A DNA stretch of 64,000 nt from Bacilli bacterium (GTDB lineage Bacteria > Bacillota_I > Bacilli_A > RFN20 > CAG-826): contig JBGURM010000092.1 in NCBI GenBank assembly GCA_045132035.1, positions 7,641 to 71,640 of the forward strand, given 5' to 3'. The notes below the pieces were generated by a model, which worked only from the letters and a program-made list of their open reading frames with translations, was not told the origin of the DNA and did not search any database. How positions within the stretch are numbered: the first letter of the stretch is position 1; every line of letters begins with the position of its first letter. The translations under genes were made by a program, and so were the position numbers. Shown one piece after another: positions 1 through 55,820 of this stretch.

Positions 1-923
1 TTTCCAATAACACCTTTTGTTGAGAAATATCTATTTTTATATGCATTAGAGAATGTTCTCATTAATTCCATATAGTCGTCACTGACACCAGCGAATTTTC
101 CTTGAGCATCAGTTAAAGCAAAATCGATAGATCCTTGTAATGTTTGTTCATTAAGGCTTGTATATGGTAAACCATATTGTTCTGCAAGTGTAATGAATAA
201 GTTATCATCTGAATCATAGCCAACTAACGCCCAGTTGTCTTTATAGTCAGCACCTGGAGTTAAGATTTTCTTGTCTTCAGGTAATTTTGCGTCGTAGGCC
301 ATAATGGCTGGACATAATTTATTGAAGAGTTCATCCCAAGTTAAATGTTGGAGATAATCATCATCAAGTGGCTCGCCATCATTAATCTCATCATCAATAC
401 CAGAAAGGTCTAAGTCGATTAAGATTGTACGATTGTAATACATCGCTTCAGTTGATTTACAAAGTGGAAGTGAATATGTTCCAGGAATAAAGTAATCACT
501 ACCTTCAGCGAGGTATGCTTCTGGAATGTCATCAATATCTTCTTGAGTCCAGCCAATTTCTGGATCGTTCATATATTTAGACATATCAAGTGCTTTACCA
601 GCATAAATGAAGTCAGCAACTGAATCTGGATAAGCAACGATTGCATCTGGATAGTCACCAGCAGCGAATCCTTTAACTGCTAAATCGGCTAAGCCATCGT
701 AGCCCATACCTGTTTGTTTGGTATATTTAACAGTGTATTCAGGATGCAATTCTTTCATTTTGTTGATTGCTTTATCAACGATTGCACCATAGGTGTCATT
801 GAATGTTCCCCATACTTTAATGAGATATCCATTATCAGGGACTCCTTGTTGTCCACATCCAGCAAGAGCGGAAACACTCATGAGTGATGCAGCTGCAATT
901 AATAATTTTCTGAATTTTTTCAT
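1..923 (-). CDS. ABC transporter substrate-binding lipoprotein, sugar/CUT1 family. Only the N-terminal ~307 codons are in the window; the C-terminus lies beyond coordinate 1.
   Basis: Not in the ORF track because it runs off the window. Reverse-strand ATG at 921-923 with an AAGGAGAAT RBS. Translation MKKFRKLLIAAASLMSVSALAGCGQQ... has lipobox L-A-G-C. It is the last gene after the permease/permease/ATPase genes on the same strand. Confidence 0.65.
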   Translation of the reverse strand, partial: MKKFRKLLIAAASLMSVSALAGCGQQGVPDNGYLIKVWGTFNDTYGAIVDKAINKMKELHPEYTVKYTKQTGMGYDGLADLAVKGFAAGDYPDAIVAYPDSVADFIYAGKALDMSKYMNDPEIGWTQEDIDDIPEAYLAEGSDYFIPGTYSLPLCKSTEAMYYNRTILIDLDLSGIDDEINDGEPLDDDYLQHLTWDELFNKLCPAIMAYDAKLPEDKKILTPGADYKDNWALVGYDSDDNLFITLAEQYGLPYTSLNEQTLQGSIDFALTDAQGKFAGVSDDYMELMRTFSNAYKNRYFSTKGVIG

Positions 924-969: not shown

Positions 970-1956
970 TTAACCCTTAATACCGGCTCTTCCAACACCA
1001 CGCATGATGTATTTACGGAAGAAGACGAATAATAAGAAGAGTGGGACTGTAACAAGAACTGTCGCTGCCATACGATATCCGTATTCAGTAATTCCTGTAT
1101 CAGCGTTTGTGAAGCTTGATCCACGTAAACCGTTTGAGATTAATTGGTAAGCTTCGTTTTTACAAACAAGTTGAGGCCACATATATGAATTCCAAGTTCC
1201 CATAAATTTGAGAATCGAAATTGAAATAAGTGTTGGAGCAGCAAGAGGAACCATGACTTTCCATAAGTAGTTCCAATCGCTCTTACCATCAACTTTGGCC
1301 GCTAAATATAATTCATTAGGGATTTGTTTGAAGTTTTGTCTTAATAAATAGATATAGAAGACACTAACCCAGAAAGGAACAATCATACATGCATAAGCTT
1401 GTAGTAATGTTTGACTGTCACTTTCAATCCATCCAAATGATGCGACGGTGATGTAGTTAGATAAGACCATCATTTCGCCAGGAATCATCATTGTCATAAG
1501 TAAGATTGCAAACACTGTTTCTCTACCTTTGAATTTAAGTCTAGAGAAGGCAAATGCCGCAAAGACTGTAGTAAGAAGTGTACCAATTGTTGAGAAGATA
1601 GCGACAACAACTGTGTTAACCATATAAGTTGAGAAATCAAATTTTTGGAAAACATACACATAGTTACTCCACATAACGATTTCTGGGAAGTAGGTTTGTC
1701 TACCACCAGTAGACATACCAGTGATTTCATCTAATGATTTAAGTGAGGTAATAATCATCCAATAGAATGGGAAGATTACGAGTAACGCTAATGCGACAAT
1801 AAACGCATAGGTAATGATTGTTGAAATAATCTTTGTAACTTTTTCAGCCTTTTTGATTGTTTCAACAGTTTTGCCGGCTTCTTTAATAGAAAGTGTAATA
1901 TTTTGGTTTAAATTTTGACCACGAAAGTTGTTATAAGTTTTTGCCATAAACAACAC
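970..1956 (-). CDS. ABC transporter permease (MalG/UgpE-like inner-membrane subunit)
   Basis: Polytopic membrane protein with the EAA-type loop AAKVDGKSDWNYLWKVMVPLAAP. Adjacent to a second permease and the ATPase. Confidence 0.8.
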   Translation of the reverse strand: MLFMAKTYNNFRGQNLNQNITLSIKEAGKTVETIKKAEKVTKIISTIITYAFIVALALLVIFPFYWMIITSLKSLDEITGMSTGGRQTYFPEIVMWSNYVYVFQKFDFSTYMVNTVVVAIFSTIGTLLTTVFAAFAFSRLKFKGRETVFAILLMTMMIPGEMMVLSNYITVASFGWIESDSQTLLQAYACMIVPFWVSVFYIYLLRQNFKQIPNELYLAAKVDGKSDWNYLWKVMVPLAAPTLISISILKFMGTWNSYMWPQLVCKNEAYQLISNGLRGSSFTNADTGITEYGYRMAATVLVTVPLFLLFVFFRKYIMRGVGRAGIKG

Positions 1957-1959: not shown

Positions 1960-3093
1960 CTAGTAATAAACTCTACTCTTCGACACTTTAGATTGAATAA
2001 GTGTGAAGATAAGAATCGCAGCGAACAATAGGACTGCACCGGCAGCAGCGTATTGAATCATTGTTTGGCTATCATGTTCAAGAATATCGTAAACATAATA
2101 GACAACTGTTAATAAGTTCTTTTCAGTAGAGGCACCACCACTACCTGCGGTACTTGGAGCACCAAAGATAGAAATGATGGAGTTATATTCCTTAAACGCT
2201 CCGATAAATCCAGTAATCATTAAGTATAAGATTTGAGGAGAGAGCAATGGAACGGTGATTCTAAGGAGGACTTTTCCTTTAGAAGCACTATCGATTTGAG
2301 CGGCTTGATAATATTGTTTATCAACGCCTTGAAGACCTGATAATAAGATTAAAATCTTAAATGGAATGGAGTTCCAAACAATGTAGATACAAAGTGGCAC
2401 CATCGCGGTCCAGTGTTCAGCGTTTTGAATCCATGCGATATTTGTATGGAACAAATTGTTAATAATACCTTGTCTATCAAAGATAACTGCGAAGACCATA
2501 CCAATAGCGATACCATTAGTAACATAAGGTAAGAAGAACACTGTTTGTAAGAATTTTTGGAACCATTTAATGGAGTTAAGAGCAACTGCGATAATAAGAG
2601 CTAAGAAGATTGATAATGGAACAGTCACGAATGCGATAAGAACTGTGTTAGGGATCGCAAAGTTCACAAAGTTAGTTTCTGTCGCTCTTTGTCCACTAGC
2701 GTTGATATATTCTTTTAAGCCAAGAACAACGCCAAAGTTATCAAGTGTCAATCCAGTACCATATCCTTTAATATAGCTATACTCTTTCGCGAACGCGATA
2801 TAGATTGTATTAATTAAAGGATAGAGCAAGAAGATTGCCACCAAGATGATAACTGGTGCTAGATATAACCATGCTTTCCAGTTATTTTTGCTAGCAACAT
2901 CATCAATTCCACTGACACGATAGCTCTTTGTTGGTCTTTTTCCAACTAAGCGAACCACCACGTCTTTTTCAGAATCATACCCTTCAGAAATATCTGGGAT
3001 TCCAGTGTCAAATAAGGATTCCGCAGCTCCAGGTTGATCAGTAGAAGCTGATTTTTTGCTATTGAAAAGTTTTTTAATTTTTTCTAATAACAT
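1960..3093 (-). CDS. ABC transporter permease (MalF/UgpA-like) with an N-terminal extension
   Basis: EAA loop AAQIDSASKGKVLLRITVPLLSP and multiple TM helices. Sits 9 nt downstream of the ATPase gene. Confidence 0.8.
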   Translation of the reverse strand: MLLEKIKKLFNSKKSASTDQPGAAESLFDTGIPDISEGYDSEKDVVVRLVGKRPTKSYRVSGIDDVASKNNWKAWLYLAPVIILVAIFLLYPLINTIYIAFAKEYSYIKGYGTGLTLDNFGVVLGLKEYINASGQRATETNFVNFAIPNTVLIAFVTVPLSIFLALIIAVALNSIKWFQKFLQTVFFLPYVTNGIAIGMVFAVIFDRQGIINNLFHTNIAWIQNAEHWTAMVPLCIYIVWNSIPFKILILLSGLQGVDKQYYQAAQIDSASKGKVLLRITVPLLSPQILYLMITGFIGAFKEYNSIISIFGAPSTAGSGGASTEKNLLTVVYYVYDILEHDSQTMIQYAAAGAVLLFAAILIFTLIQSKVSKSRVYY

Positions 3094-3102: not shown

Positions 3103-5013
3103 TTATTTTGTGTAAATTCTTTCTTCTGTTTCGCCATCAAAGATGAAGATTTTATGAGGTTTAACTTTAAATGCAACTGGTCCTGGAAGAACTGTGTCAT
3201 CAGCAGAAATAATTGCTTTGAAAGTTGGTTTTGTACAATTTTCGTTATTAGCAACAACACTAATATCACGACCCATAACTTGGATCATTTCACAATTAGC
3301 ATGTAAGACATCTTTGTCTTTATCACTTGCAAGAACAAATCCTTCTGGTCTAATAGCGACATAGACATCTTTATTACCAATTTCTTCATTTGCAGTATAA
3401 ACACAATCGTTACCAACAAAGACTTTCTTTCCTTCAACACGTCCATAGAAAACGTTGATTGGTGGAGTTCCTAAGAATTGAGCAACGAATAAGTTAGCTG
3501 GTGAATTGTAAACATCTTGTGGTTTACCCATTTGTTGCATTTCACCGAGTTTCATAACAACGATTTGATCGGAAATGGACATCGCTTCTTCTTGGTCATG
3601 GGTAACGAAGACAGAAGTAATACCTGTTTCTTGTTGAATACGTCTAATTTCTTCACGTGTTTGTAATCTTAAACGAGCGTCTAAGTTAGATAATGGTTCA
3701 TCTAATAACAAGACGCGTGGGTGTTTAACTAAAGCACGAGCAATAGCGACACGTTGTTGTTGACCACCAGAAAGTTGTGATGGTTTACGTTGTAAATATT
3801 CATCAACTTGAACGAGTTTTGCAGTTTCGTAAACGATATCGCGTCTTTCTTCTTTGGTGAGCTTACGGTGGCTGATTGCTTGAGAAACTGCAGTTTCAAC
3901 ATCAACAAGTTGGAATTTTTCCGCTAATTCTTTTAATAATTCAGCAGATTGTTCTTGTGATGTCTTTAATAACTTAAAGTAAATTTTAGTGTGTTCTTTA
4001 TCAAAGTAAATTTTGAAATCAGCAACGCCACATTTATGTTCCGCTAAGAATCTCTTAACGTTTTGAGTAAGTTCTCTATTGTTAACTGAAGATACTGTGA
4101 AATAAGGATTTTCATATGGATAAGAGGCTTTAACGGCTTCAAACCATTCATTAATTCTTAAGTGTTTGACACCTAAAACACGCGCCATGATTTCATAACC
4201 ATGTTGTGTCTTGGTGATAACTACTTCAGCTGGTTTTCCAAATTCACTAGAGGTTGAATTGAAGAGTTTGATTGTTTCATCAATCGAACTTGTTGAGAAG
4301 TTCTTTCCTAAACGGCCACGGAAAGAAGCATCGATTGTTTCATTTTCAGTGATTATTTCCACTGTCGCACGGAATGTTGTATCAAATAAAGCGTCACTTG
4401 ATTGAACTTCATCTTCGCTTTCAAGTTTAACATCAATAATCTTGTTAACATTATCTGCGAATAACGCTTTTGATGTTTTGGAAACATTAACTAATTCAAC
4501 TTTAATTTCTAAGTTGCGTTCTTTTTCTTGAACATCGAGCTTGAATTGTTTTCTTGAATAACCGGTTTTAGCCGCGAGTGATTGGAAAGCTTTTTTAATT
4601 CCATTAACATCATCGTCTTCCTTCATTTGATAGGAATAAGCAAGATGATATGTGAAGAATGTTTCAAGAGGAACTTCGACTTGTAAACTTGTTAATGGGA
4701 ATTCAATATTCTTATAAATTGTCATATGAGGATATAATGCGTAGTTTTGGAAAACTAAACCAATACCTCTTTTTTCTGGAGATAAGTTGGTAACTTCTTG
4801 ATCACCAAACCAAACTTCACCAGATGTTGGAACTTGTAATCCTGAAATCATATAAAGTGTAGTTGATTTACCACATCCTGATGGGCCAAGAAGACCGACA
4901 AGTGTGCCATCATCAACAACAAAATCCAAGTCCTTAACAGCGATGGTATCACGAATATTCTTTTTGGCATCGCCTGGGAAGATTTTTGTTAAACTCTTAA
5001 TCTTAATTTCCAT
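3103..5013 (-). CDS. ABC transporter ATP-binding protein (MalK/UgpC-like), 636 aa, with a ~280-aa insertion between the Q-loop and the ABC signature
   Basis: Walker A GPSGCGKST, Q-loop VFQNYALYPH, signature LSGGQQQRVAIARAL at residue ~414, Walker B LLLDEPLSNLDA, H-loop VTHDQ, and a C-terminal MalK-type regulatory domain. Confidence 0.85.
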   Translation of the reverse strand: MEIKIKSLTKIFPGDAKKNIRDTIAVKDLDFVVDDGTLVGLLGPSGCGKSTTLYMISGLQVPTSGEVWFGDQEVTNLSPEKRGIGLVFQNYALYPHMTIYKNIEFPLTSLQVEVPLETFFTYHLAYSYQMKEDDDVNGIKKAFQSLAAKTGYSRKQFKLDVQEKERNLEIKVELVNVSKTSKALFADNVNKIIDVKLESEDEVQSSDALFDTTFRATVEIITENETIDASFRGRLGKNFSTSSIDETIKLFNSTSSEFGKPAEVVITKTQHGYEIMARVLGVKHLRINEWFEAVKASYPYENPYFTVSSVNNRELTQNVKRFLAEHKCGVADFKIYFDKEHTKIYFKLLKTSQEQSAELLKELAEKFQLVDVETAVSQAISHRKLTKEERRDIVYETAKLVQVDEYLQRKPSQLSGGQQQRVAIARALVKHPRVLLLDEPLSNLDARLRLQTREEIRRIQQETGITSVFVTHDQEEAMSISDQIVVMKLGEMQQMGKPQDVYNSPANLFVAQFLGTPPINVFYGRVEGKKVFVGNDCVYTANEEIGNKDVYVAIRPEGFVLASDKDKDVLHANCEMIQVMGRDISVVANNENCTKPTFKAIISADDTVLPGPVAFKVKPHKIFIFDGETEERIYTK

Positions 5014-5033: not shown

Positions 5034-7793
5034 TTATTTAGTGCCATCATCAACGGCATCTTCGTTAAGTTTTAATTTTTTGGCTTGTCTACGTTGTTTA
5101 TTCGATTTGAATTTGCCAACAATAAACTTGATAAAGTAGCCAATAATCACGATTGAAATAACACCAGGAACAACGATAAAGACGTCGATTGGGTTATGAA
5201 CCGCGACTGCATTACTAAATAGTCCTGCTCTAAAGATGATAAAGAGGACAGTAATTGAAATGATTAATAAACCGACATATCCAAGAACAGCGGTCTTGAC
5301 ATAAGCTTTTGGTTTCATTCTTCTAAATTCATCGTTCTTATATTTTTCTCTTAAAACAAAGAATAGGACTGTTGCTCCGATTGCATACGCTGCTAGAGCA
5401 ACTAACTCAAAAATAAGAACAAACATGAAGATATCGTAAACTTTTGCGTTTGCGTTTTCAGGCATGACATCAATCGCACCAAAGTGGATGGATAAATCAG
5501 TACGTCCAACTTTAGTTGATTGAGCAATATTCCATAAGTGAATATTAATAGTAAATCCAACGATTTCTAATTGTTTTAAATTCTCAATTGCGAAATCATT
5601 ATATTTCTTGCCGCCTTCTTCATAAGTAATATCACTATTATTTATTAAATAAGAAAGCTTGTTACCAGAATCTTTTTCAAGAACAACAACAGAGTTAGGT
5701 GTCTTGATTGGCGTGGTAACTGTCACAATCTTATTTAAAGATGGTGAGTAATATGTTAAACGGTAGAATGAGTTATTGATGTTATAGACTGCATAACGGA
5801 CAGAATAAGAACCATCGTTAATCTTGTCTTGAACAGAGTTTTTAACATCTTCACTGATTCCTTCAAACCAGTAGGATGGTAAAACCTTATCAACATTCAT
5901 TGAAATCATTGAATAGCCAAAGAATTTTGTTAAACCAGTGAATTTATATTTAACAACTGAATTGACATTAACTTCGTTCTTATAACGTTTGCTAGCAGAA
6001 GCAGTAAAGCTAACTTTGGTGTCTGGATAACGATAGGTGAGATATTTCTCCACTGCGTGTCCTTCTTCAACTGTTTTGGTTAAAATCTTAGTTGATCTTG
6101 CACGATAAATGTTATAAACATCAACAGAAGTAGCGTCAAACTCTTCGTGGTCCTCTAATAAAATATCAAATGAACGAGAAAGAGGTTGAGTTCTAACTGA
6201 ATCATAATAAGAAGTTGAAGTTGAAGTTGGTTCTTCAGATTGTAATGGGAATTCATACCACACTTTTCTAATAGAGTTGTCTCTTGTGTTTCTAATATCA
6301 TAAGAAACAACAAGTGGTTTTTGGAATTCTGGAGTTACATCTGGAAGAATAGTAACTGTATGTCCTTGTGGACACTTTCCTTCAACTAGGTCAGATAATT
6401 GGTAGATTTCATTACAGTGTTCACAGAAGAATGTATCGTGTTGAGTATATTTATATCCTAATATAAAGGTTGTATCTTCGTTTGCTAATCTGAACATTCT
6501 GTCAGTTGAAGTGACATTTGCGTTTCTCTTACTTTCATCAAAAGCAACGCCCCATTCAACTTTCGCTCCGCTTGAAACCCATGAATCAGACCAAAGAGCA
6601 GGTTTAGAAGTTGCTTCACATTTAAATGTTACTGAAGCAGGAACATCAGTGAACGCTTTTGATTCAATTTCTTCGATTCCTTTTGGAATGTAAATTTCAG
6701 AGATATTGCCAATATATTGTTCGTTATCATCGAATTGGTCGAAATCAAGTGCGTGTGAGGCAATTCTATTATTAGCGATAGTTAAATCACTGCCATATTG
6801 CATTGTTTCTGGAACATAAATTGTTGATGCATTATCAATTAATCTTAAAACATAACCTTCTAAGGCGTGAGGAGCGGATGAACCATCTCTTACTGGATTA
6901 TCAAAATCGCCAGTCCAATTAACATCGTCCACTACTGCGTAAACGTTATTAGTGCTGTTACCAGCAGAGTTAGATAATTTACCAAATGTTTTTTTAGCGG
7001 TACCAATTGATTGGTCGATTTGGTTTGTTTCATTACCTGTACTACGACCGGTTGTTTCTTTTCCGACTAGTTCATAACCCCATTCGATATTTGATGGATC
7101 GATATCACCAAACCAATCGTTAGCCCATCCAGCTGGTTTTGAAGCTTCGCAAATCTTCACTTTGACATTTGCAGGGACATTTTGGAATGCTTTAGACTCA
7201 ATCACTTCGATTCCACTAGGAATGATTAGTCTTTCAAATTTTGCTTCTTCCAGTCCTTTTTCAAAAACAAATGCATCAGAAAGGATTCTATTATTTTTAA
7301 TAGAGAATGTGTTTCCGTAACTTACTGTTTGAGGAATAACGAATTCTGTAATTTTTACTCTAGATTCTCCTGAGCCGTAATCCAAAGTAAATGTTGCAGC
7401 GTTTGTCATTTCAATTGTGTAACCATTGAATTGTGGATTTGTCTTATCACTCAAAGATGGTTGAGATTCAGAACCAGAATAATCTGGGTCATCAATAACA
7501 ATGTAAGCATTCTTCTTTGGAGTGCCCCATCCAGTAACGCTAACACTTGTAAAGGTGATGGTTGCTGATTTACTTGTTGGAGTACTTGTCAAAGATTGAA
7601 TATCTACCGTCAATTCATTCCTGCCTAGTTCAACCGAAGAATTAAAAGATGCTTCAGAATATGGAGCATCATTACCATCGCTTAAAGCGGAGGCTTTCTT
7701 GACAGAGATAGAAGAGAAATTGGCTGCAGAAACGGCCATAACAAAAGAAAAAATAGTCGTAATTGCAGCACCAAAGAATTTTTTATTATTCAT
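5034..7793 (-). CDS. Large surface protein: signal peptide, two duplicated BspA-like LRR (LRR_5-type) modules, a CxxC...CxxxH motif, and a C-terminal multi-TM anchor
   Basis: N-terminus MNNKKFFGAAITTIFSFVMAVSA. Internal duplication (...IIPSGIEVIESKAFQNVPANVKVKICEASKPAGWANDW... and ...IYIPKGIEEIESKAFTDVPASVTFKCEATSKPALWSDSW...). CEHCNEIYQLSDLVEGKCPQGH motif. Hydrophobic C-terminal segments. Confidence 0.5.
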   Translation of the reverse strand: MNNKKFFGAAITTIFSFVMAVSAANFSSISVKKASALSDGNDAPYSEASFNSSVELGRNELTVDIQSLTSTPTSKSATITFTSVSVTGWGTPKKNAYIVIDDPDYSGSESQPSLSDKTNPQFNGYTIEMTNAATFTLDYGSGESRVKITEFVIPQTVSYGNTFSIKNNRILSDAFVFEKGLEEAKFERLIIPSGIEVIESKAFQNVPANVKVKICEASKPAGWANDWFGDIDPSNIEWGYELVGKETTGRSTGNETNQIDQSIGTAKKTFGKLSNSAGNSTNNVYAVVDDVNWTGDFDNPVRDGSSAPHALEGYVLRLIDNASTIYVPETMQYGSDLTIANNRIASHALDFDQFDDNEQYIGNISEIYIPKGIEEIESKAFTDVPASVTFKCEATSKPALWSDSWVSSGAKVEWGVAFDESKRNANVTSTDRMFRLANEDTTFILGYKYTQHDTFFCEHCNEIYQLSDLVEGKCPQGHTVTILPDVTPEFQKPLVVSYDIRNTRDNSIRKVWYEFPLQSEEPTSTSTSYYDSVRTQPLSRSFDILLEDHEEFDATSVDVYNIYRARSTKILTKTVEEGHAVEKYLTYRYPDTKVSFTASASKRYKNEVNVNSVVKYKFTGLTKFFGYSMISMNVDKVLPSYWFEGISEDVKNSVQDKINDGSYSVRYAVYNINNSFYRLTYYSPSLNKIVTVTTPIKTPNSVVVLEKDSGNKLSYLINNSDITYEEGGKKYNDFAIENLKQLEIVGFTINIHLWNIAQSTKVGRTDLSIHFGAIDVMPENANAKVYDIFMFVLIFELVALAAYAIGATVLFFVLREKYKNDEFRRMKPKAYVKTAVLGYVGLLIISITVLFIIFRAGLFSNAVAVHNPIDVFIVVPGVISIVIIGYFIKFIVGKFKSNKQRRQAKKLKLNEDAVDDGTK

Positions 7794-7886: not shown

Positions 7887-8948
7887 CTACTCTTTATCTA
7901 TCAATTTGAACGGGATTGCTTCCTTGTGATCTAAGGAATATTCAACAGCGATTTCATATTTGCTGAAGTAGACTTTTTGCTTATTTGTGTCAATTTCAGT
8001 TAACCCAAGCATATAGTCTGGAAAACCTTGTTTCCTCTTTGAAAACACCATCATGGAAAATGAAATAATGAATGGTAAACCAAAGGAAAATAGGCTTAAT
8101 ACTAGCTCTCCAAAGAAGAAAATAGCCCATCTAGCCGTATATCTTCCAAATGAAGGATTAAGCACTTTAGAATCAACAAGTCCAATTTGCATAAGCCTCT
8201 TTCCAAAGGTTGATCTTCCTCTTCTAAAAATCAAAACAGGAGGGACAAAATAGATAATCACACCAGAAACAAACACTGCAGTTGGGATTTGAATAAAAAA
8301 CAAAATGTTGGATAAAGTTTTAAGCGCAGTTTGATATTCAGGGAAGAAAGAAATTAAAAAACCACCGCAATTGGTTAATGTGTATTCTCGATAAAAATGG
8401 GTGTAATAATATTCGTCTCCCGCTTTAGCGTTTGGGTTACGAACAATCTTCTCCACCATTACGCCTCCTTCTTCTACAGTTGTCTTAATGAAAAGGTTTC
8501 TACCTTCTGAATCTAAAACTTTAGAAGATAGTCTACTTTCATCATAATTCTTCACCAATTCGTCATATTGTTCGGTTGTGCCATTATTTTGAACATAGGT
8601 AATAAAGTTATCGATCGCTAATTGGCAACGATACACCCTAGTGTGATAAGCGGTATCGTTATTGTTGTCTAAATATGTTGAAATGTTCTCCCATGTTTTT
8701 CTTTTGGAAGAATATTCAAATAACCCAGAATCTTTTCTATAAGTCGCTACGACATTATCAGCAGCGCGATATTGAGGGGTTACTTCCGCTGTTTTTTGAA
8801 CAGCAATAAACATCGCAATAAAAGTTAAGAAAAGGAAAATGATATCAAGGAAATTACCAAAACATCTCTTGATGAATGGTGGTTGCTCATAAACAAGATT
8901 AATCGAATTTTCAGGAGCGTCTATTACTTCAAGGGATTCTTTTTCCAT
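7887..8948 (-). CDS. RDD-family-like integral membrane protein with a large extracytoplasmic insertion
   Basis: N-terminal IKRCFGNFLDIIFLF (R...D) and later FGKRLMQIGLVD resemble RDD-family motifs. Multiple TM segments. Confidence 0.4.
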   Translation of the reverse strand: MEKESLEVIDAPENSINLVYEQPPFIKRCFGNFLDIIFLFLTFIAMFIAVQKTAEVTPQYRAADNVVATYRKDSGLFEYSSKRKTWENISTYLDNNNDTAYHTRVYRCQLAIDNFITYVQNNGTTEQYDELVKNYDESRLSSKVLDSEGRNLFIKTTVEEGGVMVEKIVRNPNAKAGDEYYYTHFYREYTLTNCGGFLISFFPEYQTALKTLSNILFFIQIPTAVFVSGVIIYFVPPVLIFRRGRSTFGKRLMQIGLVDSKVLNPSFGRYTARWAIFFFGELVLSLFSFGLPFIISFSMMVFSKRKQGFPDYMLGLTEIDTNKQKVYFSKYEIAVEYSLDHKEAIPFKLIDKE

Positions 8949-10145
8949 TTACTTAATATCTCCTCTTTTTTTCGCTAATTCAAGTTCTTTCATCTCTTCT
9001 TTTGCTTTAATGATCCCATCTACTTCTTCTGAAGAAATCATAACTGTTTGACTAAGTAAATCAATCGCAGACCTATTAAATGAATGGAATAAGAGAATAA
9101 ATAATCCCGCTAATAGAGCAACAACAGAAATGACGCTTAATATTGGAAGCACAGGTAATCTCAAAGAATAGATAAATGTAGTATAACTTAATGGTATGAA
9201 CATAATAAATGGCAAATCAAACACCAAATAGTATAGCGAAGTTAAAAATGCTTCTGGTTTATTAATTGGTTGAAGATGTTTATAATTAAGCCTATCAATT
9301 TTCATAATTGATTGAGTTGGAGTGTGCAATGATCGATTGATCAAAGGATAAATGACATATACGATTAGCCATCCAATAACGTAAGAAATCGCACAACACA
9401 CCGATAAAGTCGCATAATATTTATTAGCGATACTAGTCATAATTGCCTGATTTTCATTAAATGAATTACCAAGCGAATCCTTTAAATCATTCTTATAAAT
9501 GTCTTGGATTACGCATCCAAATAAAGCAGAGAATAAATCGTTAATTTTTTCATAATACTCTCTTCCTTTTGAGCCTAAATTCTCTCCAGGCATAAAATAA
9601 ATTCTTACTTCCGCAATAACTTCTTCTTTTAAAGAAACGCTTGTAGAAGTAACAATAAATAAATTAGCTTCTTTATTATGATTCAAAAACAAATCATAGT
9701 AGGTTATAGAGTCTGAGCGGATATTATTGTAATAAGTCCAAATGACTTCATTTTCTAATTTATGTGAATATTCAGGGTATTCTGGATTTAAAGATGTTTC
9801 ATCTGGGAATGTATAATACGCAAGAAACCTATTAAATGTATACGCTAAATTACTATCGAAGTCATATTTCTTATAATTACCACTAGCGTTTTCATCGGTT
9901 TTATAAAAGAGCAACTGATGTTCATAAAGAATATTGTCTCTTTTTTTCTCAGCAGCGTAAGATCTTTCAGTTTCAGGTTTAACAAAAATTGAACAAATCG
10001 GCATAACCGCAATATTCATGATGATAATGCTAATAATGAAGTGAATGAAAAAGTCCCCGAGGAAAACGAGGATTCTTCTCCATTTTGAGATTGGATGTAT
10101 ATCTATTTCTATTACTTCTTTTTTCTTGATTTGATCAGAATACAT
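8949..10145 (-). CDS. RDD-family-like integral membrane protein, paralogous architecture to the downstream gene
   Basis: KWRRILVFLGDFFIHFII (R...D) at the N-terminus, a TM-rich C-terminus, and start/stop abutting the neighbouring gene. Confidence 0.35.
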   Translation of the reverse strand: MYSDQIKKKEVIEIDIHPISKWRRILVFLGDFFIHFIISIIIMNIAVMPICSIFVKPETERSYAAEKKRDNILYEHQLLFYKTDENASGNYKKYDFDSNLAYTFNRFLAYYTFPDETSLNPEYPEYSHKLENEVIWTYYNNIRSDSITYYDLFLNHNKEANLFIVTSTSVSLKEEVIAEVRIYFMPGENLGSKGREYYEKINDLFSALFGCVIQDIYKNDLKDSLGNSFNENQAIMTSIANKYYATLSVCCAISYVIGWLIVYVIYPLINRSLHTPTQSIMKIDRLNYKHLQPINKPEAFLTSLYYLVFDLPFIMFIPLSYTTFIYSLRLPVLPILSVISVVALLAGLFILLFHSFNRSAIDLLSQTVMISSEEVDGIIKAKEEMKELELAKKRGDIK

Positions 10146-10154: not shown

Positions 10155-11378
10155 TTAATTAGTGTATTTTCTTTTTATTAATAACAAACTAACCCCTAAA
10201 ATCGATAATGTTGCTAAAATCGTACTCGTTGTTGCAATATTACCTCCACAGCCTCCAGTAGAAGCCGGGCTTTCTTTACCACTACCAACTGTTATTTCAC
10301 AAGACGCATATAAGCCGTCATTTGAATAAACACTAACAGTGGCTTTTCCGTCTTTTAATCCAGTAACTAAGCCACTACCATTAACAGATGCAACACTATT
10401 ATTGTCACTAATCCATGATAATGATGGGAGAACTGCACCAGTTGGAACTGGACTTGGAGTTAATTGGACTTTTCCACCTACTTCAATAGAGTAGGAACTA
10501 TAGTTAAGAGTAATACTTGTTGCTTTTGTTTCTGGATCAGGAGGAATAACAGAACCTGAGCAAGCAGCTTTTGTGGCCGCGTTATAATTACCCCAAATTC
10601 TACAAGCATATTCTGGGTGATCAATAAATGGATTTCTATTTCCTTGACCTCCACTTGCAGTTTGAATTGCTTCGTTTCTATTGAGTTCTGCTCTTCTAGC
10701 AATATCGTTAGCGCCAGTAAATGAGGTGTTATTTGGTTGATATTGTAAGTTCCACGCTAACATTTCACTTAGTGAACCCATACAGTTAGGGTGAGAACCA
10801 GCTCCATGATAATTAAGTGGATCATCAATAAGACTTAAACTTAAATCTGCCATTGCTGCATAGAAAATAATTCTAGAAGCAGAGCCACGGTAATATTCAA
10901 CATATTTACCTGGATCATATGAAGAAACACCATATCCTTTTGAACCTCTATCACTATTGGTAGAAGTCGCTGATGGTCTTACCATATGAGCGTCATCTTC
11001 TACTGCGTCTCCACCACGGATATTTGGCCAAACATGCTCTCTATTCCAAGTGTTTCCACTGTCCCAATTTGGTCCGACTAAAGCATTATCATAAAAGCTT
11101 AAAATTTTGCCTGAACCATTTGGATCAGCGTCACTAGTTTTAGCGAATGTTCTCATTCCAGCGTAACCAACTAATCTAGTTCTTTTAGTTGTATTTAATT
11201 TATTTAGTGCTTTGAGAAGATCTTCTCCAGTTAATGTATCACTAATAGATGCATAATAATCACCTGCTGCGGCAGTAACTGGTTCAGCTTTCCTTTCTCC
11301 ACTTACCACTCCAGTAGCGACAAGACCCATACTTAAAATCGCTAATCCTGCTAATAAAAAATGTTTGATGTTTTTCAT
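10155..11378 (-). CDS. Secreted endonuclease-I-family (EndA/Vvn-like) nuclease with a Big_2 Ig-like domain and C-terminal membrane anchor
   Basis: Signal peptide MKNIKHFLLAGLAILSMGLVATG. Motifs NREHVWP, DDAHMVRPSATSTNSDRGSKGYG and NRNPFIDHPEYACRIW match Endonuclease_1 family signatures. Big_2-like segment (KVQLTPSPVP...KATVSV). C-terminal hydrophobic tail. Confidence 0.7.
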   Translation of the reverse strand: MKNIKHFLLAGLAILSMGLVATGVVSGERKAEPVTAAAGDYYASISDTLTGEDLLKALNKLNTTKRTRLVGYAGMRTFAKTSDADPNGSGKILSFYDNALVGPNWDSGNTWNREHVWPNIRGGDAVEDDAHMVRPSATSTNSDRGSKGYGVSSYDPGKYVEYYRGSASRIIFYAAMADLSLSLIDDPLNYHGAGSHPNCMGSLSEMLAWNLQYQPNNTSFTGANDIARRAELNRNEAIQTASGGQGNRNPFIDHPEYACRIWGNYNAATKAACSGSVIPPDPETKATSITLNYSSYSIEVGGKVQLTPSPVPTGAVLPSLSWISDNNSVASVNGSGLVTGLKDGKATVSVYSNDGLYASCEITVGSGKESPASTGGCGGNIATTSTILATLSILGVSLLLIKRKYTN

Positions 11379-11433: not shown

Positions 11434-12960
11434 TTAAATCTCGATGAGAGAATTTCTATTATGTTGAGGTAAACTAGAGGAAAAGTCATTTGGATTAAGC
11501 GCTAATCCATCTTTATATCCATTTGTCTTTAACCAATTTTTCAAAATAACACGATAATTATCATTTAAAACACCGATAGGAGTTCCACTAAATGAAGAGA
11601 AATAATCATAATATCTTCTAACATTCGTGTGGAACAAAAGGAAATCGATAGTCGCTATTTTATATTTTTTATTTGGGTCGATTCTTTTATCAAACGATGG
11701 ATTAAAGTAGACATTATTATAGTTAGTCACTTCATAATAAATATCTCTACCAGAAACCTCAGCAACAAAAGCGAAATTATCAAATGGGAATGACTCATAT
11801 AAATCAGAATAATCCCATTTTCCATATGGCAAGTAATGTCTAGCGGTGTTGCAATATGAAAGAATAATGTCATCATATCCTTCACTAACTGCTTCATCAT
11901 AGATTGCTTTACACATCAAATTGACTGCAGTTTCACTTTGAGCAAAATAACTTGTTACATTACTTGCAACCACTTCATTAGCAGCTTCTTCACAGTCGCT
12001 AGAGTATTCATTAATCAAAGCTTCAATATTCGTATCAATAGAAGTAATACGGCTATTAATGCTATTAGAATCGATGACTTCCACTGTAGTGTTTGTAACT
12101 TTTTTAGATTGTCTATCATATGTTAATTTAATATTTCCAATTAATTCTCCATATGCGCCAAATTGAACATATGTTAATCTTCCTTCACTTGACTGTTCAT
12201 ACCGATGAGTGTGACCACAAAGAACTAAATCAACATATTCTCCTAAAGAATTATTTTTAACATCATCTTGACCAGTATGAACAGACGCAATAACTAAATC
12301 ACATCCATTTCTTCTTAATTCAGTAGCTTCTTGCTTGATTATATCAATATGGTTTTTAAAACAAATGGTCTCTGTGTAATATGAAGTAATTGAAGTAATT
12401 TGATTCTCTCCAATAACTCCCACTATTCCAACTTTTAAACCGTTCTCTAAAGTATAAATAACGGACTTCCTACCGATATTTGATTGTTGTGTATTGCCAA
12501 CTGTGTGACTAGCAAAGTCATAATCATAGACATTTGCCGCTAAAACTGGAGTGACATAACCATCATATTCTCTAGCGGTGTTAGCCACTATTTTTTCTAT
12601 TCCCCAGTCAAAATCATGATTACCTACTGTTCTAGCGTCAACTCTCGCGTAAGCGTAAACATCATTAATTAATTGCCCATGGTTATAATTTGAATAAATT
12701 GAACCTTGCCAATCATCACCTTGAGAAATAACTAAAGTGTTTTCTTTTTCACCTTGTTCTTTAATATATGTTCCTAATCTTGCTAAACCAATTCTTCCAC
12801 TTTCAGGATAAATCGCTCCATGGAAATCATTAAAAGCGACGATATTGATTGTTTCTTCATCTTTAGTAGTTGTTCCTCCACCTTGTCCTCCAGTTGGACC
12901 ACAAGAAAAGATTGATAACACAGTCATCATAAAGAAAATGGAAACGATTCTTTTTCTCAT
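11434..12960 (-). CDS. 5'-nucleotidase / metallophosphoesterase family lipoprotein (UshA-like)
   Basis: Lipoprotein signal ...LSIFSCG. Calcineurin-like motifs NIVAFNDFHG, GDDWQGS, GNHDFDWG. C-terminal 5'-nucleotidase-like domain. Confidence 0.7.
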   Translation of the reverse strand: MRKRIVSIFFMMTVLSIFSCGPTGGQGGGTTTKDEETINIVAFNDFHGAIYPESGRIGLARLGTYIKEQGEKENTLVISQGDDWQGSIYSNYNHGQLINDVYAYARVDARTVGNHDFDWGIEKIVANTAREYDGYVTPVLAANVYDYDFASHTVGNTQQSNIGRKSVIYTLENGLKVGIVGVIGENQITSITSYYTETICFKNHIDIIKQEATELRRNGCDLVIASVHTGQDDVKNNSLGEYVDLVLCGHTHRYEQSSEGRLTYVQFGAYGELIGNIKLTYDRQSKKVTNTTVEVIDSNSINSRITSIDTNIEALINEYSSDCEEAANEVVASNVTSYFAQSETAVNLMCKAIYDEAVSEGYDDIILSYCNTARHYLPYGKWDYSDLYESFPFDNFAFVAEVSGRDIYYEVTNYNNVYFNPSFDKRIDPNKKYKIATIDFLLFHTNVRRYYDYFSSFSGTPIGVLNDNYRVILKNWLKTNGYKDGLALNPNDFSSSLPQHNRNSLIEI

Positions 12961-12963: not shown

Positions 12964-14028
12964 TTATTTATCCTTAATGTAGTCAAGTATCATTGATGAT
13001 AAAACTTCTTTTAGGACTTTTCTTTCTTCCTTAGGAGTGTTTTTCCATTCAGCAGGGAGCTTTTTTAATGCTTCTTTTAAAGAGGCAAGATTCTTTTCTT
13101 TTGTAGAAAGTCCATCAAAATTAAGTCTTTCAAGTAAATTGAATAATGTCGCTGTAAATTCTTTTTTTGTCGCTAAATCATATTTTACCACTGTTGAGTT
13201 AAGAGTATTAACAATTCGAGTGGATCTTTTTGAAAAGTTTTTAACATATTCAAAGTGATTATCAATTATTAACCAACTAAATGTATCATGTTGCATTATT
13301 AACGAATTATTTGAATTCACAATATGATATTCAACTGGTTCAGTGATTAATCTTCCAATTATCGAATCAACAGGAGCGTAAAATTTAATAATTGGAGAAA
13401 TCTTTTCATATTCATTATCATAGAAACGCTTACTATAATTAGGAGAATCGAAAGCGTATATCCACATTAAGTTATCTTTTTTAGTTAAATATTTAGACGC
13501 CGTTATCGCTAGTCTTCCTCCTTTAGAGTGACCAACAACATATATTTTCTTTTTCTTATATTTATGAGCGATAAAAGATAAATATTCAATCGCTTCTATT
13601 TCACTAGGAGTAATATCTAAAAAAGACATATTAATATCTTCTTTAATACCTTCCACTGTTCCATCCGTTCCACAAAAAGAGACGACAATATAATCTTTAA
13701 ACGCGAAAGAAACGGCCTGGAACTGTTTTTCAAGCTCCGGATTGTTATTTCTTTGATAATTAATTAATTTCATGTTAGAGAAGCGATTTGAACCCGCTAC
13801 TCTAGATAATATACGAAGATATTCTCTTCTTCTTTTCATTAGATGAGAATCATCATAATATTTGAGGGCGTTTAAAATATCTGAATTGGAGTTATCTTTG
13901 TTAATTAAAAGGAAATCACCATAATGAGGATACGCTAAAGATGCGAAAATCATCGCATCAATTTCGTTAAAGGGTGATTCTATTAAACTTATATCTTGAT
14001 ATTTATCTAGATAATCATCCAAATACAT
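12964..14028 (-). CDS. Alpha/beta hydrolase, lipase-like (DUF2974/Mbeg1-like type)
   Basis: Nucleophile elbow VVGHSKGG with upstream VVSFCGTDGT. Confidence 0.5.
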   Translation of the reverse strand: MYLDDYLDKYQDISLIESPFNEIDAMIFASLAYPHYGDFLLINKDNSNSDILNALKYYDDSHLMKRRREYLRILSRVAGSNRFSNMKLINYQRNNNPELEKQFQAVSFAFKDYIVVSFCGTDGTVEGIKEDINMSFLDITPSEIEAIEYLSFIAHKYKKKKIYVVGHSKGGRLAITASKYLTKKDNLMWIYAFDSPNYSKRFYDNEYEKISPIIKFYAPVDSIIGRLITEPVEYHIVNSNNSLIMQHDTFSWLIIDNHFEYVKNFSKRSTRIVNTLNSTVVKYDLATKKEFTATLFNLLERLNFDGLSTKEKNLASLKEALKKLPAEWKNTPKEERKVLKEVLSSMILDYIKDK

Positions 14029-29831: not shown

Positions 29832-29974
29832 GTTTTCTTGACCTCCTTTTCAATTTGTTTGGTTTTTTGAGGCTCCAATATACAGTGAGAATAAAATGTA
29901 TTTTTCTTCACCTAGGTAACATTATTAAGACTCAAACGTCCGTTACTGTCTTTGGTATATTGAAATCTTTTTAA
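29832..29974 (-). promoter_or_regulatory. Putative L10 (rplJ) leader. A 143-nt structured intergenic region sits in the position of the autoregulatory L10-leader.
   Basis: Position between rplA and rplJ. Called on position only; motifs were not verified. Confidence 0.3.
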
Positions 29975-31683: not shown

Positions 31684-34600
31684 TTAAATTGGTGCGTGTA
31701 ATCCTGTTGAATCTAACGTATATCCATTAGAGAAAGTAACTAGATTTCCACCAGAATATGACGCAACTGTTCCTAATAATATCGCATTACCACTAGCGTC
31801 TTCATGCCAGAAAAGTAATGTTCCTTTAGCGACTGTATCTGTTCCAGTTACAACGCCTGTAGAGGTAAGATCACTCAACGTTTCAACATAGAAATAAATA
31901 TCATCAATTTGTAATTGAGCTTCGTATTTTCTCCACTCACTTGTCATACTCAAACTTGTACTGTATTTATTGTAAGTAAAGATTTTTAACGCCGAGTCAT
32001 TCTTAACCATGTAGTTATTACTGCTAGTGTTATACGAATTATTTCCTAGATTAAAGCCATTTGCTCCTCCAGGAAGCTGTAATTCCACCAAACTTGGACA
32101 ATTGTTAAATACACCATTATTATAGGCTGTCCATCGGCAACTTGGATTTGTCACTCTAAACGCTTCTAAATCAGAACAAGAAGCAAAAGCTGAGGCACCA
32201 AGACTAATCTGACTTGATGTTATTTTCATCGTCACAATATCAGAGCCGGAGAATGCACTACCACCAATACTCGTTACACTAGAAGGTAAAACAATATTGC
32301 CACTTGAGTCAATCACTCCAGTGTTTGCAAAGGCCGATCCTTTAATTGAAGTTAAAGATGTAAATTTGCTAAATTCAAATTGTTCTAGTTTTCCACATCC
32401 AGAGAACGCACTTGCCTCAATAGAAGTAATACCAATCGACGCTCCGTCAACTGTAACATGTTCTAAGTTGGTGCATCCTTCAAATGTTGATTCTCCTAAT
32501 TTGTCATAAAGAGTGGAAGGAAGACTAACATCTACCAAACTTGTGCAGCCACTAAATGCTCCAGTTTTAACTATATGGACTTGGCATAATGCTGAAGTTG
32601 GCCAAAGAATATTGGTAAGGCCAGTAGAAGCAAACGCTCCATCTTCGATTACAAGAGTTCCGGTGACATTTCTAAAATCTAACGTTGTTAAATTAGAACA
32701 TCCATTGAATGCATTGGAGTTTATTGTTACTGTTCCAGTAACATTACCAAAGCTAACTGTTGCTAAACTATCACAACCAGTAAAAGCACTTGATCCGATT
32801 GTCAAAGATCCTGATAACGAGCCAAAATTCACACTTGCCAAATCTCCACAAGACTCAAATGCACTGGAGCCGATTGTCAAGTCGGTTGATACAGGAGTAA
32901 AACTAATTGATGCTAGATTTTCACAATCCTTAAACGCTGAAGCTCCGACAGTAAAACTAGAATTATTAGCGGCAGTAAATGATTCGATAGATGGGTTGTT
33001 TTTAAAAGCCTCATCACCAATACCAGCATATTGGGAATTAGTTAAATTCAAAGCGTGAGCAACAGGTGTATCGCCTGTCACGTAATATGTTAAATCAGTG
33101 TTTTCAACACTATCGAAGACACCTTTTGGAATTATATCTCCAGGAGAAACAGGGAATTCAACGTTTGCAAGTTCTTCGCACCCTTTCATCGCATATTCAG
33201 GAAGATTAAGAACGTTACCAGCGATGGTGTCTAAGTTGCACTTAAATGCTGTTCTATCGTAACTTAAAACAATCTTACCTAAGTAAACATAACTATCCGT
33301 ATCAAACTCCATCGTTCCACTTCTAGATGATTTAGTGCCGATTGGAGAAAATAATGGTTGAGGAATTGTGTTAACACCAGATTGAGTTGGATTGCCACAA
33401 ATTAATGATCTAATCCATACACCCATCTTGAATGCACCAAACATATATGGGTTTGTTTTATATAATCCATTAAACTTAATGCCATTTTTTGGTGATCCAA
33501 CAGCGGATGTATCAGCAGCACCTTCTGCTGTATAATCAGCAGCATCTCTATTTAAAACCAGCAATAATCTATCTTTATTGAATGAAATACCAGCGTCGTT
33601 TGTTGAATATAACGCACATGTATATAAAGGTGTTCCTGCAGTGGCAGAAGTATAAGTTGTGACAGTGTAATAATTAGAACTTCCACCAGCAAAAGTGATT
33701 TGTCTAAGATTTAATGCGTTAGCGAAGATGGATTGAATTTTATCTTCTGGAGAAGCAACCACCAGCTTGCTTGGATCTTCGATTGATCCGCTTGGAACTG
33801 TAACTGAATTTTCAAAGAATTTACACGTGCTTGGAATATTTAAAATAGCTTTAACACCACAGAACAAGAAAGCACTCTTGCCAATATATTCAAGGGATGA
33901 TGGCATTCCTTCTACAGGCGTATTATTTCCGCTATACGACTTAATAGTCGTAACACCGTACGTTCGAATAAACGCATAATCTCCAATGGATTTAATTGTG
34001 TTAGGCAAGACAATCGTTGTTAAATCATCAAAGCTACCTACCGCCTTAGTAGGACTTGTATCCTGACCATCACAGAAGCAGCAAGAGAAAGCTGCATCTC
34101 CAATTTTATTAACGGTACAAGTTCTATTTGTTCCGTTGATTTTGGCAGTAACAGTTTCTTTAACTGTAGCGGTTGTTAAGCTAGCAGAATTGTCATAAAG
34201 ACTATACATATAGTTCGACATTGTAGCGACATAGTTTTCACCAACTTTGCCACAAACATAAGAGCATTTATCTTCTATAACTAATTCACGACTTGTTTCA
34301 CTAGAAACGCCAACTTCAACATTAATACCATCAATAGTTTCTTTATAATGGACATTATCATATACTGGTGTTTCTTGGTTGATTTCAAAAGTATTTACTG
34401 ATTCATCGCTAGAATAATCAGACGTATAGCTTGAGCCAAAAATAAATCCAAAGTGCTTTGTTGAGGCTTCTTTTGTTGCAAAATATGCTTCATTGCCAAC
34501 TGTTTTCCATTGGGTAGCCAATGATAATGCTTTATTCTCAAAGCTTAAGTTTGTCCAGTGCCCGTCTTTTTTGTCACTATACATATTAGTGCCATATGTG

Positions 34601-39700: not shown

Positions 39701-39861
39701 CCAGTACCACGTTCAAAGTAAGAACGAAGAGAAACCTCGCCATAAAAGCCATCACTTTCAGCATCCTTGATATATGCGGATAAAGTGAAAGGAACGATCA
39801 TACTCACAAAAAGAAGAGTACAAATTCCAATATATGCTATTAAAACTTTTTTCGATTTCAT
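36799..39861 (-). CDS. Large secreted protein (1020 aa) with a TasA/camelysin-like N-terminal region
   Basis: Signal anchor then LSAYIKDAESDGFYGEVSL (compare camelysin AYFSDKEVSNNTFAAGTLDL). Beta-rich D/G/T-rich body. Confidence 0.45.
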   Translation of the reverse strand: MKSKKVLIAYIGICTLLFVSMIVPFTLSAYIKDAESDGFYGEVSLRSYFERGTGRPKGTNGPSDPGDPYVITRPRHMYNLSRLQGLGVFKESTYFQLGLEGLAGDLTGKPLCYLDDTSTTTVPFLDMSDSDYDYEPINAIGSEAVPFYGEFDGQGLEIKNLTVYADPQDAGLFGYTAHGSSIHDLFLSNVTINSLGYTDSFAGLYGPSAPVAVGTSFVYDIEGSESDTFINTDTGKFKFLEFDAEDFFEWDESSGDPMPSIDYDVPVVSFTSTNTNYKYKFLISGDFLTYTDGNSEVSVDIEEVYRFFKKEKTEATTFPLRASSSVSLIASTTDNYGLDHSKVVMSLDFDFALNAKDSSILTMNAHLGSEHTNNIGLLIGHCDGSVSDCYVYNGRFEMNNGNTITGLSTYHAMENGSNYGLIGLIGGTVHNIAAEESDAATTTGKDIGVLDFTSVYNEIIDSHSFDTSTSLPGGGVSYTPSSSLKYRDFLRINGSGQHVTLERDSVSFRPQKIISNTDLGIFTIATNESGSGMDYEASNDLEKSVIRNEDVSVDSNYYIYYATGEYQKDKGPTFDKFRNALNSNTPSSFHPGYHFPNYDQITVESFEQRNWHQNYIVRFKMDYNYRTGKGFYFSDVDKNTVGGSFMSKYFESVLVDKDGHTIPASANSGKSGVMLRNSLGQEIRYFASSFATPDLSGTGMKMYCIDNDDYEKPVANMINFEIKTNTANVTIVAGLVDRTKPAAVGIYKIGDERDEYLGKPYVNRTFEDPDFAFFMPKDDHLAYFDYKVDNQNVGQIGVYNSDGSTFTPATIHTNATIPNTYGTTEYGYSSGKTRLYAHTFKLEPGRYCIGSASGVNRDSGKEGIAKLFYVCAQGQTDGQITFEDNAFASRDEVKNVDFVKKECYSYNPGTGVVTTNITLDKEHPVTVYNPSDSRVDNQRCYVALVNSDRSTFDAAPANVSFVYNQATNKFVISTDYISAVTYIAVSNYAHSHPVTGLSNATVTLFNEGDSTDDKIVYPEI

Positions 39862-42313: not shown

Positions 42314-42352
42314 AAAAAGCCAGTCGCCTTATTAGTAGTTAGGCAGCTGGCT
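42314..42352 (-). promoter_or_regulatory. Terminator-like hairpin plus U-run inside the 5' leader of the fibre operon, immediately upstream of the RBS. Possible attenuator.
   Basis: Minus strand AGCCAGCUGCC-loop-GGCGACUGGCU (10/11 bp) then UUUUUAAAUAGUAGAGGGGCAAAAUG. Confidence 0.45.
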
Positions 42353-43994: not shown

Positions 43995-44011
43995 TAGGAG
44001 GAATATCTAAT

Positions 44012-55771: not shown

Positions 55772-55820
55772 AAAATTCCCCCTATGTATGTAAAAGATTT
55801 ATTAATTAAATATAAAAGAT

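Follow-up and report, generated by a model that had tools for sequence, protein, structure and literature searches.

The window analysed here, a 64,000-nucleotide stretch of DNA from a Bacilli bacterium (GTDB lineage Bacteria; Bacillota_I; Bacilli_A; RFN20; CAG-826; GenBank assembly GCA_045132035.1, contig JBGURM010000092.1, positions 7,641 to 71,640 of the forward strand), encodes an ATP-binding cassette (ABC) importer ATPase whose nucleotide-binding domain (NBD) is interrupted, within its helical subdomain, by a single insertion of 271 amino acids (aa). The importer ATPase is ordinary apart from this insert, an accessory module that has not been described before and is restricted to one lineage, and the gene cluster around the ATPase is unusually elaborate and strictly conserved. 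An initial annotation, made from the sequence alone, had suggested that the insert could be either a regulatory domain or a partner-binding platform, and these two roles are still the leading hypotheses. The parts of the ATPase gene are as follows, with coordinates given as positions in the window.

3103..5013, minus strand: ABC importer ATPase of the MalK/MsmX/UgpC type, 636 aa with the insertion (open reading frame (ORF), Pfam and PDB matches)
4681..5013, minus strand: N-terminal part of the NBD, residues 1-111, with Walker A, the Q-loop and the first helix of the helical subdomain (aligns with 2yyz 10-104 and SugC 3-110)
3868..4680, minus strand: insertion, residues 112-382, 271 aa (outside every PDB, Pfam and NCBIfam match)
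3454..3867, minus strand: C-terminal part of the NBD, residues 383-520, with the exit stalk HRKL and helix 2 of the helical subdomain (aligns with 2yyz from 103 and with MalK 111-247)
3454..3867, minus strand: LSGGQ, Walker B, D-loop and H-switch, all within this C-terminal part of the NBD (motif positions)
3106..3453, minus strand: C-terminal MalK-type regulatory domain, residues 521-636 (aligns with 2yyz up to 358; predicted local distance difference test (pLDDT) score ~75-93)

The Pfam model ABC_tran (PF00005) matches the 636-aa ATPase in two separate stretches (E 2.3e-34), and the same division recurs in phmmer comparisons with PDB chains, where 2yyz (9.5e-84), SugC (1.4e-74), MsmX (1.3e-67) and Escherichia coli MalK (3.1e-62) each match in two blocks that adjoin in the target chain. 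In 2yyz, query residues 17-111 correspond to chain residues 10-104 and query residues 383-633 to 103-358, the C-terminal domain included; in SugC (7cad), 2-112 correspond to 3-110 and 385-523 to 110-248, and in E. coli MalK (1q12), 391-527 correspond to 111-247. Because the two blocks abut in the targets, the extra length is one 271-aa insertion at one point. The NCBIfam scan agrees, in that all 25 families listed for the ATPase scored under their cut-offs (best, the UgpC subfamily, 341.2 bits against a cut-off of 432) and every match was split in two. The initial annotation had described a MalK/UgpC-like ATPase with one domain-sized insertion in the helical subdomain, between the Q-loop and the ABC signature, and the Pfam, PDB and NCBIfam matches all bear this out; its estimates of ~280 aa and of nucleotides 3830-4690 were essentially right, and alignment to MalK-type structures confirms that the extra residues are contiguous rather than scattered as small indels.

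The catalytic motifs are found in canonical order and as a full set: Walker A (GPSGCGKST) at residues 43-51, the Q-loop at Q89, LSGGQ at 414-418, Walker B at 434-440, the D-loop at 442-445, and the H-switch at 470-474. By its architecture the protein is a member of the MalK/MsmX/UgpC type, and PF17912 is assigned in precomputed annotation to several of its homologues. The genes expected of a CUT1-type system are all present, namely the ATPase, two BPD_transp_1 permeases and an SBP_bac_1 lipoprotein. Alignment with MalK places the insertion site in the loop between helices 1 and 2 of the helical subdomain, at about MalK residues 102-104. In the MalFGK2 transporter, K106, V114 and V117, on the helix that follows the insertion point, touch the EAA loops of the permeases.

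Searches with the insert returned nothing outside the ATPase family. No Pfam family of any kind matched it even at E up to 10, ACT and NIL included, no NCBIfam model covers it, and a PDB sequence search gave no match below E 0.38. Among the matches of the whole ATPase to the PDB, residues 112-382 were left uncovered in the best 60 of 576 (E up to 0.001). Exhaustive HMMER comparison of an insert profile with 1.84e9 representative proteins gave 14 matches, all of them ATPase-family members or chimeric fragments. So far as sequence comparison can detect, the insert is without a relative outside its ATPase family. A word-index search with the insert alone found only 8 truncated or frameshifted homologues and understates the size of the family, and a search with the full-length protein brought up more than 120 clusters (635-645 aa, 69-96% identity), all lacking an informative name. 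Five database entries (P0005, P0006, and P0137-P0139) are frameshifted or chimeric, with foreign N- or C-terminal sequence joined to a partial ATPase; P0137, P0138 and P0139 had been considered as short-insert intermediates and were rejected when reading of the sequences showed them to be chimeric assemblies. The literature yielded nothing on such an insert under MG187/MPN134, under helical-subdomain insertions, or under links between RDD proteins and ABC transporters. A new protein family could be built on the insert.

The fold of the insert is predicted with confidence. Modelled alone by AlphaFold2 on a 24-sequence alignment, it has a mean pLDDT of 91.7 and a predicted template modelling (TM) score of 0.72, and the same region scores pLDDT 86-94 in a run with the full-length protein. 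Six helices and ~15 strands are assigned in the model (DSSP), arranged as three beta-alpha-beta-beta-alpha-beta units (D1, D2, and D3) on a two-strand stalk, with D2 nested in D3 and the exit strand at residues 380-384. The segments are listed below in the order of the protein chain.

4666..4680, minus strand: strand VEVPL of the entry stalk, residues 112-116 (conservation of 90% or more across 52 sequences; modelled beta strand 111-115)
4402..4656, minus strand: unit D1, residues 120-204, predicted ferredoxin-like (strand 120-129, helix 136-149, strand 157-164, strand 167-177, helix 179-192, strand 196-204)
4360..4386, minus strand: strand beta1 of D3, LFDTTFRAT, residues 210-218, with conserved D211 and R215 (model and conservation; kept in the shortened homologue described below)
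4081..4338, minus strand: unit D2, residues 226-311, predicted ferredoxin-like (strand 226-236, helix 241-255, strand 260-269, strand 272-283, helix 284-297, strand 301-311)
3880..4077, minus strand: remainder of D3, residues 313-378, in which D332, K334 and Y336 are conserved (helix 313-325, strand 329-337, strand 342-351, helix 353-366, strand 369-378)

The description of the insert as charged and helical-looking holds only in part, since the insert as a whole is alpha/beta, built of three ferredoxin-like units, and not mainly helical; the peptide quoted as an example in the initial annotation does contain the last insert helix but runs on into the native helix 2 of the helical subdomain. 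The nesting of D2 is illustrated by a metagenomic homologue of 550 aa (locus L057, contig Ga0183101_1001827; start 36 nucleotides (nt) after position 4330; LSGGQ at residue 327) that lacks exactly residues ~226-311, the strand 210-218 running straight into the helix 313-325. As it is precisely D2 that is lost, D3 is made up of strand 210-218 and residues 313-378, with D2 lying in its beta1-alpha1 loop, and the L057 ATPase is, as read from its sequence, a natural two-unit form of the insert.

Foldseek comparison of the insert model with the PDB gives a probability of 1.00 to tandem ferredoxin-fold and ACT proteins. The matches include the designed proteins 4hhu and 4ney (E 3.5e-7), the GcvR-like protein 1u8s, 2nyi, the ACT domains of aspartokinase and SerB2, the AHAS regulatory subunit, and domains of EF-G/LepA. 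As the TM-scores are just 0.2-0.39, the likeness is at the level of fold class and identifies no specific relative. Profile comparison of D1, D2 and D3 with one another by hhalign gave nothing significant, the sole match being to a deliberately overlapping segment; in the model, the repetition of the three units is structural only.

A search for homologues with the same insertion found it in all 53 distinct full-length sequences, once in the shortened form. Across these sequences, the NBD core (residues 1-111 plus 383-520) is 81-100% identical, and in seven comparisons between genome loci residues 1-111 are 90-100% identical, whereas identity within the insert ranges from 93% down to 30%. The aligned span of the insert is nonetheless 265-271 residues in 52 of the 53, L057 being the exception. 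At least 90% of the 52 retain the VEVPL entry stalk and, at the exit, A379 and H382 (A..HR), and the same threshold is reached by polar residues on strands of D3 and D2 (D211, R215, E274, D332, K334, and Y336). The conserved stalk argues for rigid rather than floppy attachment to the helical subdomain. For unsaturated pairs, the ratio of nonsynonymous to synonymous substitution (dN/dS, Nei-Gojobori) is 0.03-0.14 in the insert and 0-0.09 in the C-terminal regulatory domain of the same pairs, values which indicate that the insert is under purifying selection.

A peptide-pattern scan of one genome per GTDB species identified 20 species that carry the insert-bearing ATPase, a number that is a lower bound because the scan needs exact peptide patterns. 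All 20 are represented by uncultured metagenome-assembled genomes (MAGs) or isolate bins labelled Bacilli, Bacillales, Erysipelotrichaceae, Faecalibacillus or simply 'bacterium', and isolate or contig names hint at sources in the rumen, buffalo gut and horse gut. The nearest relative in the scan is Bacilli MAG282, with an insert 92% identical. The only public name found for the ATPase family is 'ABC-type sugar transport system ATPase subunit'.

The ATPase gene belongs to a co-directional, tightly packed cluster on the minus strand that extends from a 5'-nucleotidase-like gene to the binding protein. The other members of the cluster are listed here from the start of the window.

1..923, minus strand: solute-binding lipoprotein, N-terminal 307 aa, running off the start of the window (LAGC lipobox; SBP_bac_1, E 1.5e-9)
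970..1956, minus strand: permease 2, 328 aa, with an N-terminal extension of ~40-45 aa (BPD_transp_1; conserved LSIKESGKTVDxIK)
1960..3093, minus strand: permease 1, 377 aa, with an N-terminal extension of roughly 70-85 aa (BPD_transp_1; first transmembrane helix from ~71 by hydropathy)
5034..7793, minus strand: accessory surface protein, 919 aa, with a signal peptide and a variable ectodomain (hydropathy; alignment of 21 orthologues)
7887..8948, minus strand: RDD-family membrane protein, 353 aa (PF06271, E 1.6e-12; tblastn homologue in 47 of 63 loci)
8949..10145, minus strand: second RDD-like membrane protein, 398 aa (weak PF06271 match, E 3e-4; tblastn homologue in 41 of 63 loci)
10155..11378, minus strand: surface-anchored nuclease with Endonuclease I and Big_2 domains, 407 aa (PF04231, PF02368; N- and C-terminal hydrophobic segments)
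11434..12960, minus strand: 5'-nucleotidase-like metallophosphoesterase, probable lipoprotein, 508 aa (Metallophos; weak 5_nucleotid_C)

The accessory surface protein encoded immediately upstream of the ATPase has no significant match in Pfam or the PDB. Its hydrophobic blocks (residues 782-816 and 830-896) are read, from the alignment, as three predicted transmembrane helices (TM1-TM3). The ectodomain falls to 25-30% identity among orthologues, and the only parts of the protein that are near-invariant in every species examined are two segments predicted to be cytoplasmic, namely K[YF]KNDEF[RK]R, located between TM1 and TM2, and LKLNEDVxDDGT[KN] at the C-terminus, which in the window take the form KYKNDEFRR and LKLNEDAVDDGTK. 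An N-terminal part of the BspA leucine-rich repeat (LRR) type is shared with the closest relatives only, most orthologues being 676-727 aa long.

In each of the 20 genome loci the genes run accessory protein, ATPase, permeases, with the accessory gene ending 11-23 nt before the ATPase gene, and the binding protein comes next wherever the flank reaches. The association was also examined in reverse by scanning metagenomes for the two cytoplasmic motifs of the accessory protein, which located 42 loci. An ABC ATPase starts 15-68 nt downstream in 41 of these, and at every informative locus (38/38) the downstream ATPase bears the insertion; informative loci that reach the signature have LSGGQ at residue 411-418 (327 in L057), and in the others no signature has yet appeared where the contig stops, after 305-418 residues. 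In the data available, co-occurrence of the accessory protein with the insert-bearing ATPase is complete in both directions.

The insert is also inherited together with the two RDD proteins, the extended permeases, and surface nucleases of two unrelated families. The pair of RDD genes lies upstream in most loci, the Endonuclease I + Big_2 nuclease is present in seven related loci, and an SNase-family nuclease lipoprotein of ~490 aa comes after the binding-protein gene or pair of genes in 18 loci, among them L001 (14833-16335), the nearest relative of the window, and L063 (17068-18543); the window ends before this position. The extension of permease 1 contains the conserved motifs EGYD..VVRLV and GIDDVASKNNWKAW. 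The N-terminal extensions of both permeases are conserved and cytoplasmic, canonical CUT1 permeases are not known to have their like, and they are further candidate partners of the insert. As separate observations, two tandem solute-binding protein genes occur in some loci, and the head of the cluster is occupied by an Mbeg1-like or class 3 lipase-like protein (12964-14028, minus strand, E 6.9e-50), in place of which L063 has a Y_phosphatase3 protein.

The reading that we favour, tentatively and with a confidence just short of even, is that the insert gives a nuclease-linked importer a platform for docking and regulation on its cytoplasmic side. In SugC, a close homologue, the coupling helix enters a cleft on the NBD surface, and the helical subdomain rotates relative to the RecA-like subdomain upon ATP binding (PMC7608808). 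Judging from the insertion site, a module rigidly attached to the helical subdomain, which borders that cleft, would lie under the membrane, beside the permeases and the coupling-helix cleft. There it could bind the cytoplasmic segments of the accessory membrane protein or proteins, the permease extensions, or both, so that the bound partners would be coupled to the ATPase cycle and the helical subdomain's rotation, or would gate the cycle. The importer itself would most likely take up products of extracellular nucleic-acid breakdown, as has been proposed for a nuclease-linked ABC operon of mycoplasmas (PMC4045577, PMC12115388).

Several points weigh against this interpretation. It is only the neighbouring genes that make nucleic-acid breakdown products the most likely substrate; the family of the binding protein is of the sugar type, and the sole public name of the ATPase refers to sugar transport. 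The cytoplasmic motifs of the accessory protein are near-invariant whereas the insert drops to 30% identity, so the motifs could instead bind the conserved NBD core or the permeases. The Foldseek TM-scores are low, and the ferredoxin-like fold is very common and has many functions, small-molecule sensing among them. Finally, in the full-length AlphaFold2 run (34-sequence alignment) the NBD has pLDDT below 50 at residues 1-108 and 430-517, so that where the insert stands with respect to the NBD and the membrane is to be taken from the insertion site alone; the combination of low values in the NBD and high values in the insert reflects the variation available in the alignment, the NBD being nearly invariant, and not novelty.

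The main rival, which is compatible with docking, is that the tandem ACT-like units sense a cytoplasmic metabolite, such as the transported product or a nucleotide, and restrain rotation of the helical subdomain, producing trans-inhibition. The ACT-like C2 domain of MetN and the C-terminal domains of ModC and MalK are its analogues. The best Foldseek matches are indeed ACT-type regulatory domains (GcvR-like 1u8s, aspartokinase, SerB2, and the AHAS regulatory subunit), the conserved polar residues cluster on the D3 sheet, and the insertion lies in the mobile helical subdomain; moreover, D2 occupies the beta1-alpha1 loop of D3, and in ACT domains this loop is the ligand site. We nevertheless regard such a sensor as somewhat unlikely, because neither ACT nor NIL was matched in sequence, the structural scores stay within the low range already given, a MalK-type C-terminal regulatory domain is already present, and a sensor leaves unexplained why the ATPase is strictly inherited together with the accessory protein, whose cytoplasmic motifs are invariant. 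Improbable, in our view, is the proposal that the insert is not new at all and corresponds to the extra ~220 aa of the mycoplasma oversized ATPases (MG187/MPN134), diverged past recognition. Oversized MalK/UgpC-like ATPases are known from Mollicutes, and there is a parallel in operon content, as a surface nuclease and a lipoprotein stand beside a nucleotide-precursor ABC transporter in mycoplasmas (PMC4045577, PMC12115388) and nucleases of the Endonuclease I and SNase types flank the transporter here; some of the metagenome contigs that bear the locus are, in addition, only 0.49-0.80 Mb in size. However, the profile search of 1.84e9 representatives met the ATPase family only, a Mollicutes label is absent from all 20 genome records, and since the window reads through with translation table 11, TGA is a stop codon here.

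The much faster evolution of the insert than of the NBD core (30% against 81-100% identity) might be taken to suggest a neutral, lineage-specific expansion tolerated in a surface-exposed loop. This explanation is very improbable given dN/dS values similar to those of the C-terminal regulatory domain, a near-constant span, an invariant stalk and invariant polar residues, and a confidently predicted fold. The chimeric or frameshifted entries of the family (P0005, P0137-P0139) bring to mind a chimeric assembly, an intein or a mobile gene nested in the ATPase gene, but the ORF is continuous in 53 distinct sequences from independent assemblies, the absence of any Pfam family on the insert at E up to 10 leaves no splicing or endonuclease domain, the opposite strand holds no ORF of 80 aa or more, and the region is under purifying selection as protein. 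With the insert carried by 53 of 53 family members and maintained by such selection, an artefact or selfish element is effectively refuted. A more ambitious version of the docking platform, which we consider doubtful, would make the insert the hub of an undescribed multi-component import machine, in which the accessory protein and the two RDD proteins are plugged into the ATPase. The accessory ectodomain would then capture substrate, and capture and nuclease digestion would be coupled, mechanically or allosterically, to ATP-driven uptake; if true, small-genome Bacilli would possess a functional counterpart to the surface 'utilisome' complexes known in other bacteria.

Comparison with known systems shows how far the ATPase is ordinary and where it departs. 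It can be aligned end to end with the MalK, MsmX, SugC, and UgpC proteins (2yyz, 1q12, 7cad, 6yir) in its RecA-like core, helical subdomain and C-terminal regulatory domain, and it shares their partner set of two BPD_transp_1 permeases and an SBP_bac_1 lipoprotein; these proteins are, however, 355-406 aa long and not 636. Owing to the insert, the spacing from Walker A to LSGGQ is 371 residues, as against ~98 in the known importers (in SugC, Walker A at 41-48 and LSGGQ at 139-143; PMC7608808). Among importers the nearest concept is the C2 (NIL, ACT-like) domain of MetN, likewise a ferredoxin- or ACT-like module on a type I importer ATPase and plausibly regulatory. That domain is a single C-terminal unit which dimerises beneath the NBDs, whereas here three units lie inside the helical subdomain, and the two have no sequence similarity. 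With respect to the ACT class as a whole, the pLDDT-92 model has the beta-alpha-beta-beta-alpha-beta topology but a sequence-profile match was not obtained.

Inserts between the Q-loop and the signature are found in other ABC proteins, namely the coiled coils of Rad50/SMC, the insertion domains of UvrA, the arm of ABC-F proteins (EttA), and the chromodomain of eEF3. The corresponding part of the ABC fold, known as the helical subdomain or 'structurally diverse region', hosts partner-binding modules in these proteins, which differ from the present case in being soluble non-transporters with other inserted folds. We know of no type I importer ATPase of solved structure that holds several folded domains inserted at this site, and none of the best 60 of the 576 PDB matches has a domain there. 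At the level of the operon, the closest parallel is the nuclease-linked ABC operon of mycoplasmas, of which we take MG185-189 and MPN133-136 to be members, where, as here, genes for a surface nuclease and a surface (lipo)protein stand next to those of an ABC importer; the cluster in the window has a surface nuclease gene in the same co-directional array. The operons compared were MBOVPG45_0307-0311 of M. bovis and the mslA locus of M. gallisepticum (PMC4045577, PMC12115388), and the present cluster differs from them in also having two RDD proteins, a surface protein with a predicted three-helix membrane anchor, and recognisable binding proteins. No sequence homology between the insert and the mycoplasma ATPases was detected in the profile search of the representative proteins.

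The wider window provides genomic context. The position of the cluster is just downstream of the region that holds rpoB/rpoC and the str operon, as judged from ORF sizes in the window and from synteny with L063, where the S12, S7, EF-G, and EF-Tu genes are annotated by Pfam; a ribosomal protein L10 leader (RF00557, 50.5 bits) is found at 29882-29973 on the minus strand. A c-di-GMP-I riboswitch (42339-42420, minus strand, 55.8 bits, E 3e-8) precedes a co-directional operon that encodes three proteins without a Pfam match (41426-42295, 39861-41423, and 36799-39861) and a 1698-aa BspA-type LRR protein (31684-36780). TrkH/TrkA are encoded at 42588-44683 on the plus strand, and a glycogen/starch set occupies 53369-63293 on the minus strand, comprising glycogen phosphorylase, a branching-enzyme-like protein (CBM48 + alpha-amylase), 4-alpha-glucanotransferase, and a CBM26 starch-binding protein.

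Few membrane machines are as well understood as type I ABC importers, whose known regulatory additions are found at the C-terminal end of the ATPase. A folded module of three domains in the mobile helical subdomain, beside the coupling-helix cleft, would, if true, regulate or extend an importer in another manner, and the fact that it is strictly linked to additional membrane proteins suggests a complex with more than the usual four or five subunits. Through the nuclease genes nearby, the insert-bearing ATPase is connected with nucleic-acid scavenging by uncultured rumen and gut Bacilli, and the system may have a bearing both on how such Bacilli feed and on the function of the nuclease-linked ABC transporter of mycoplasmas.

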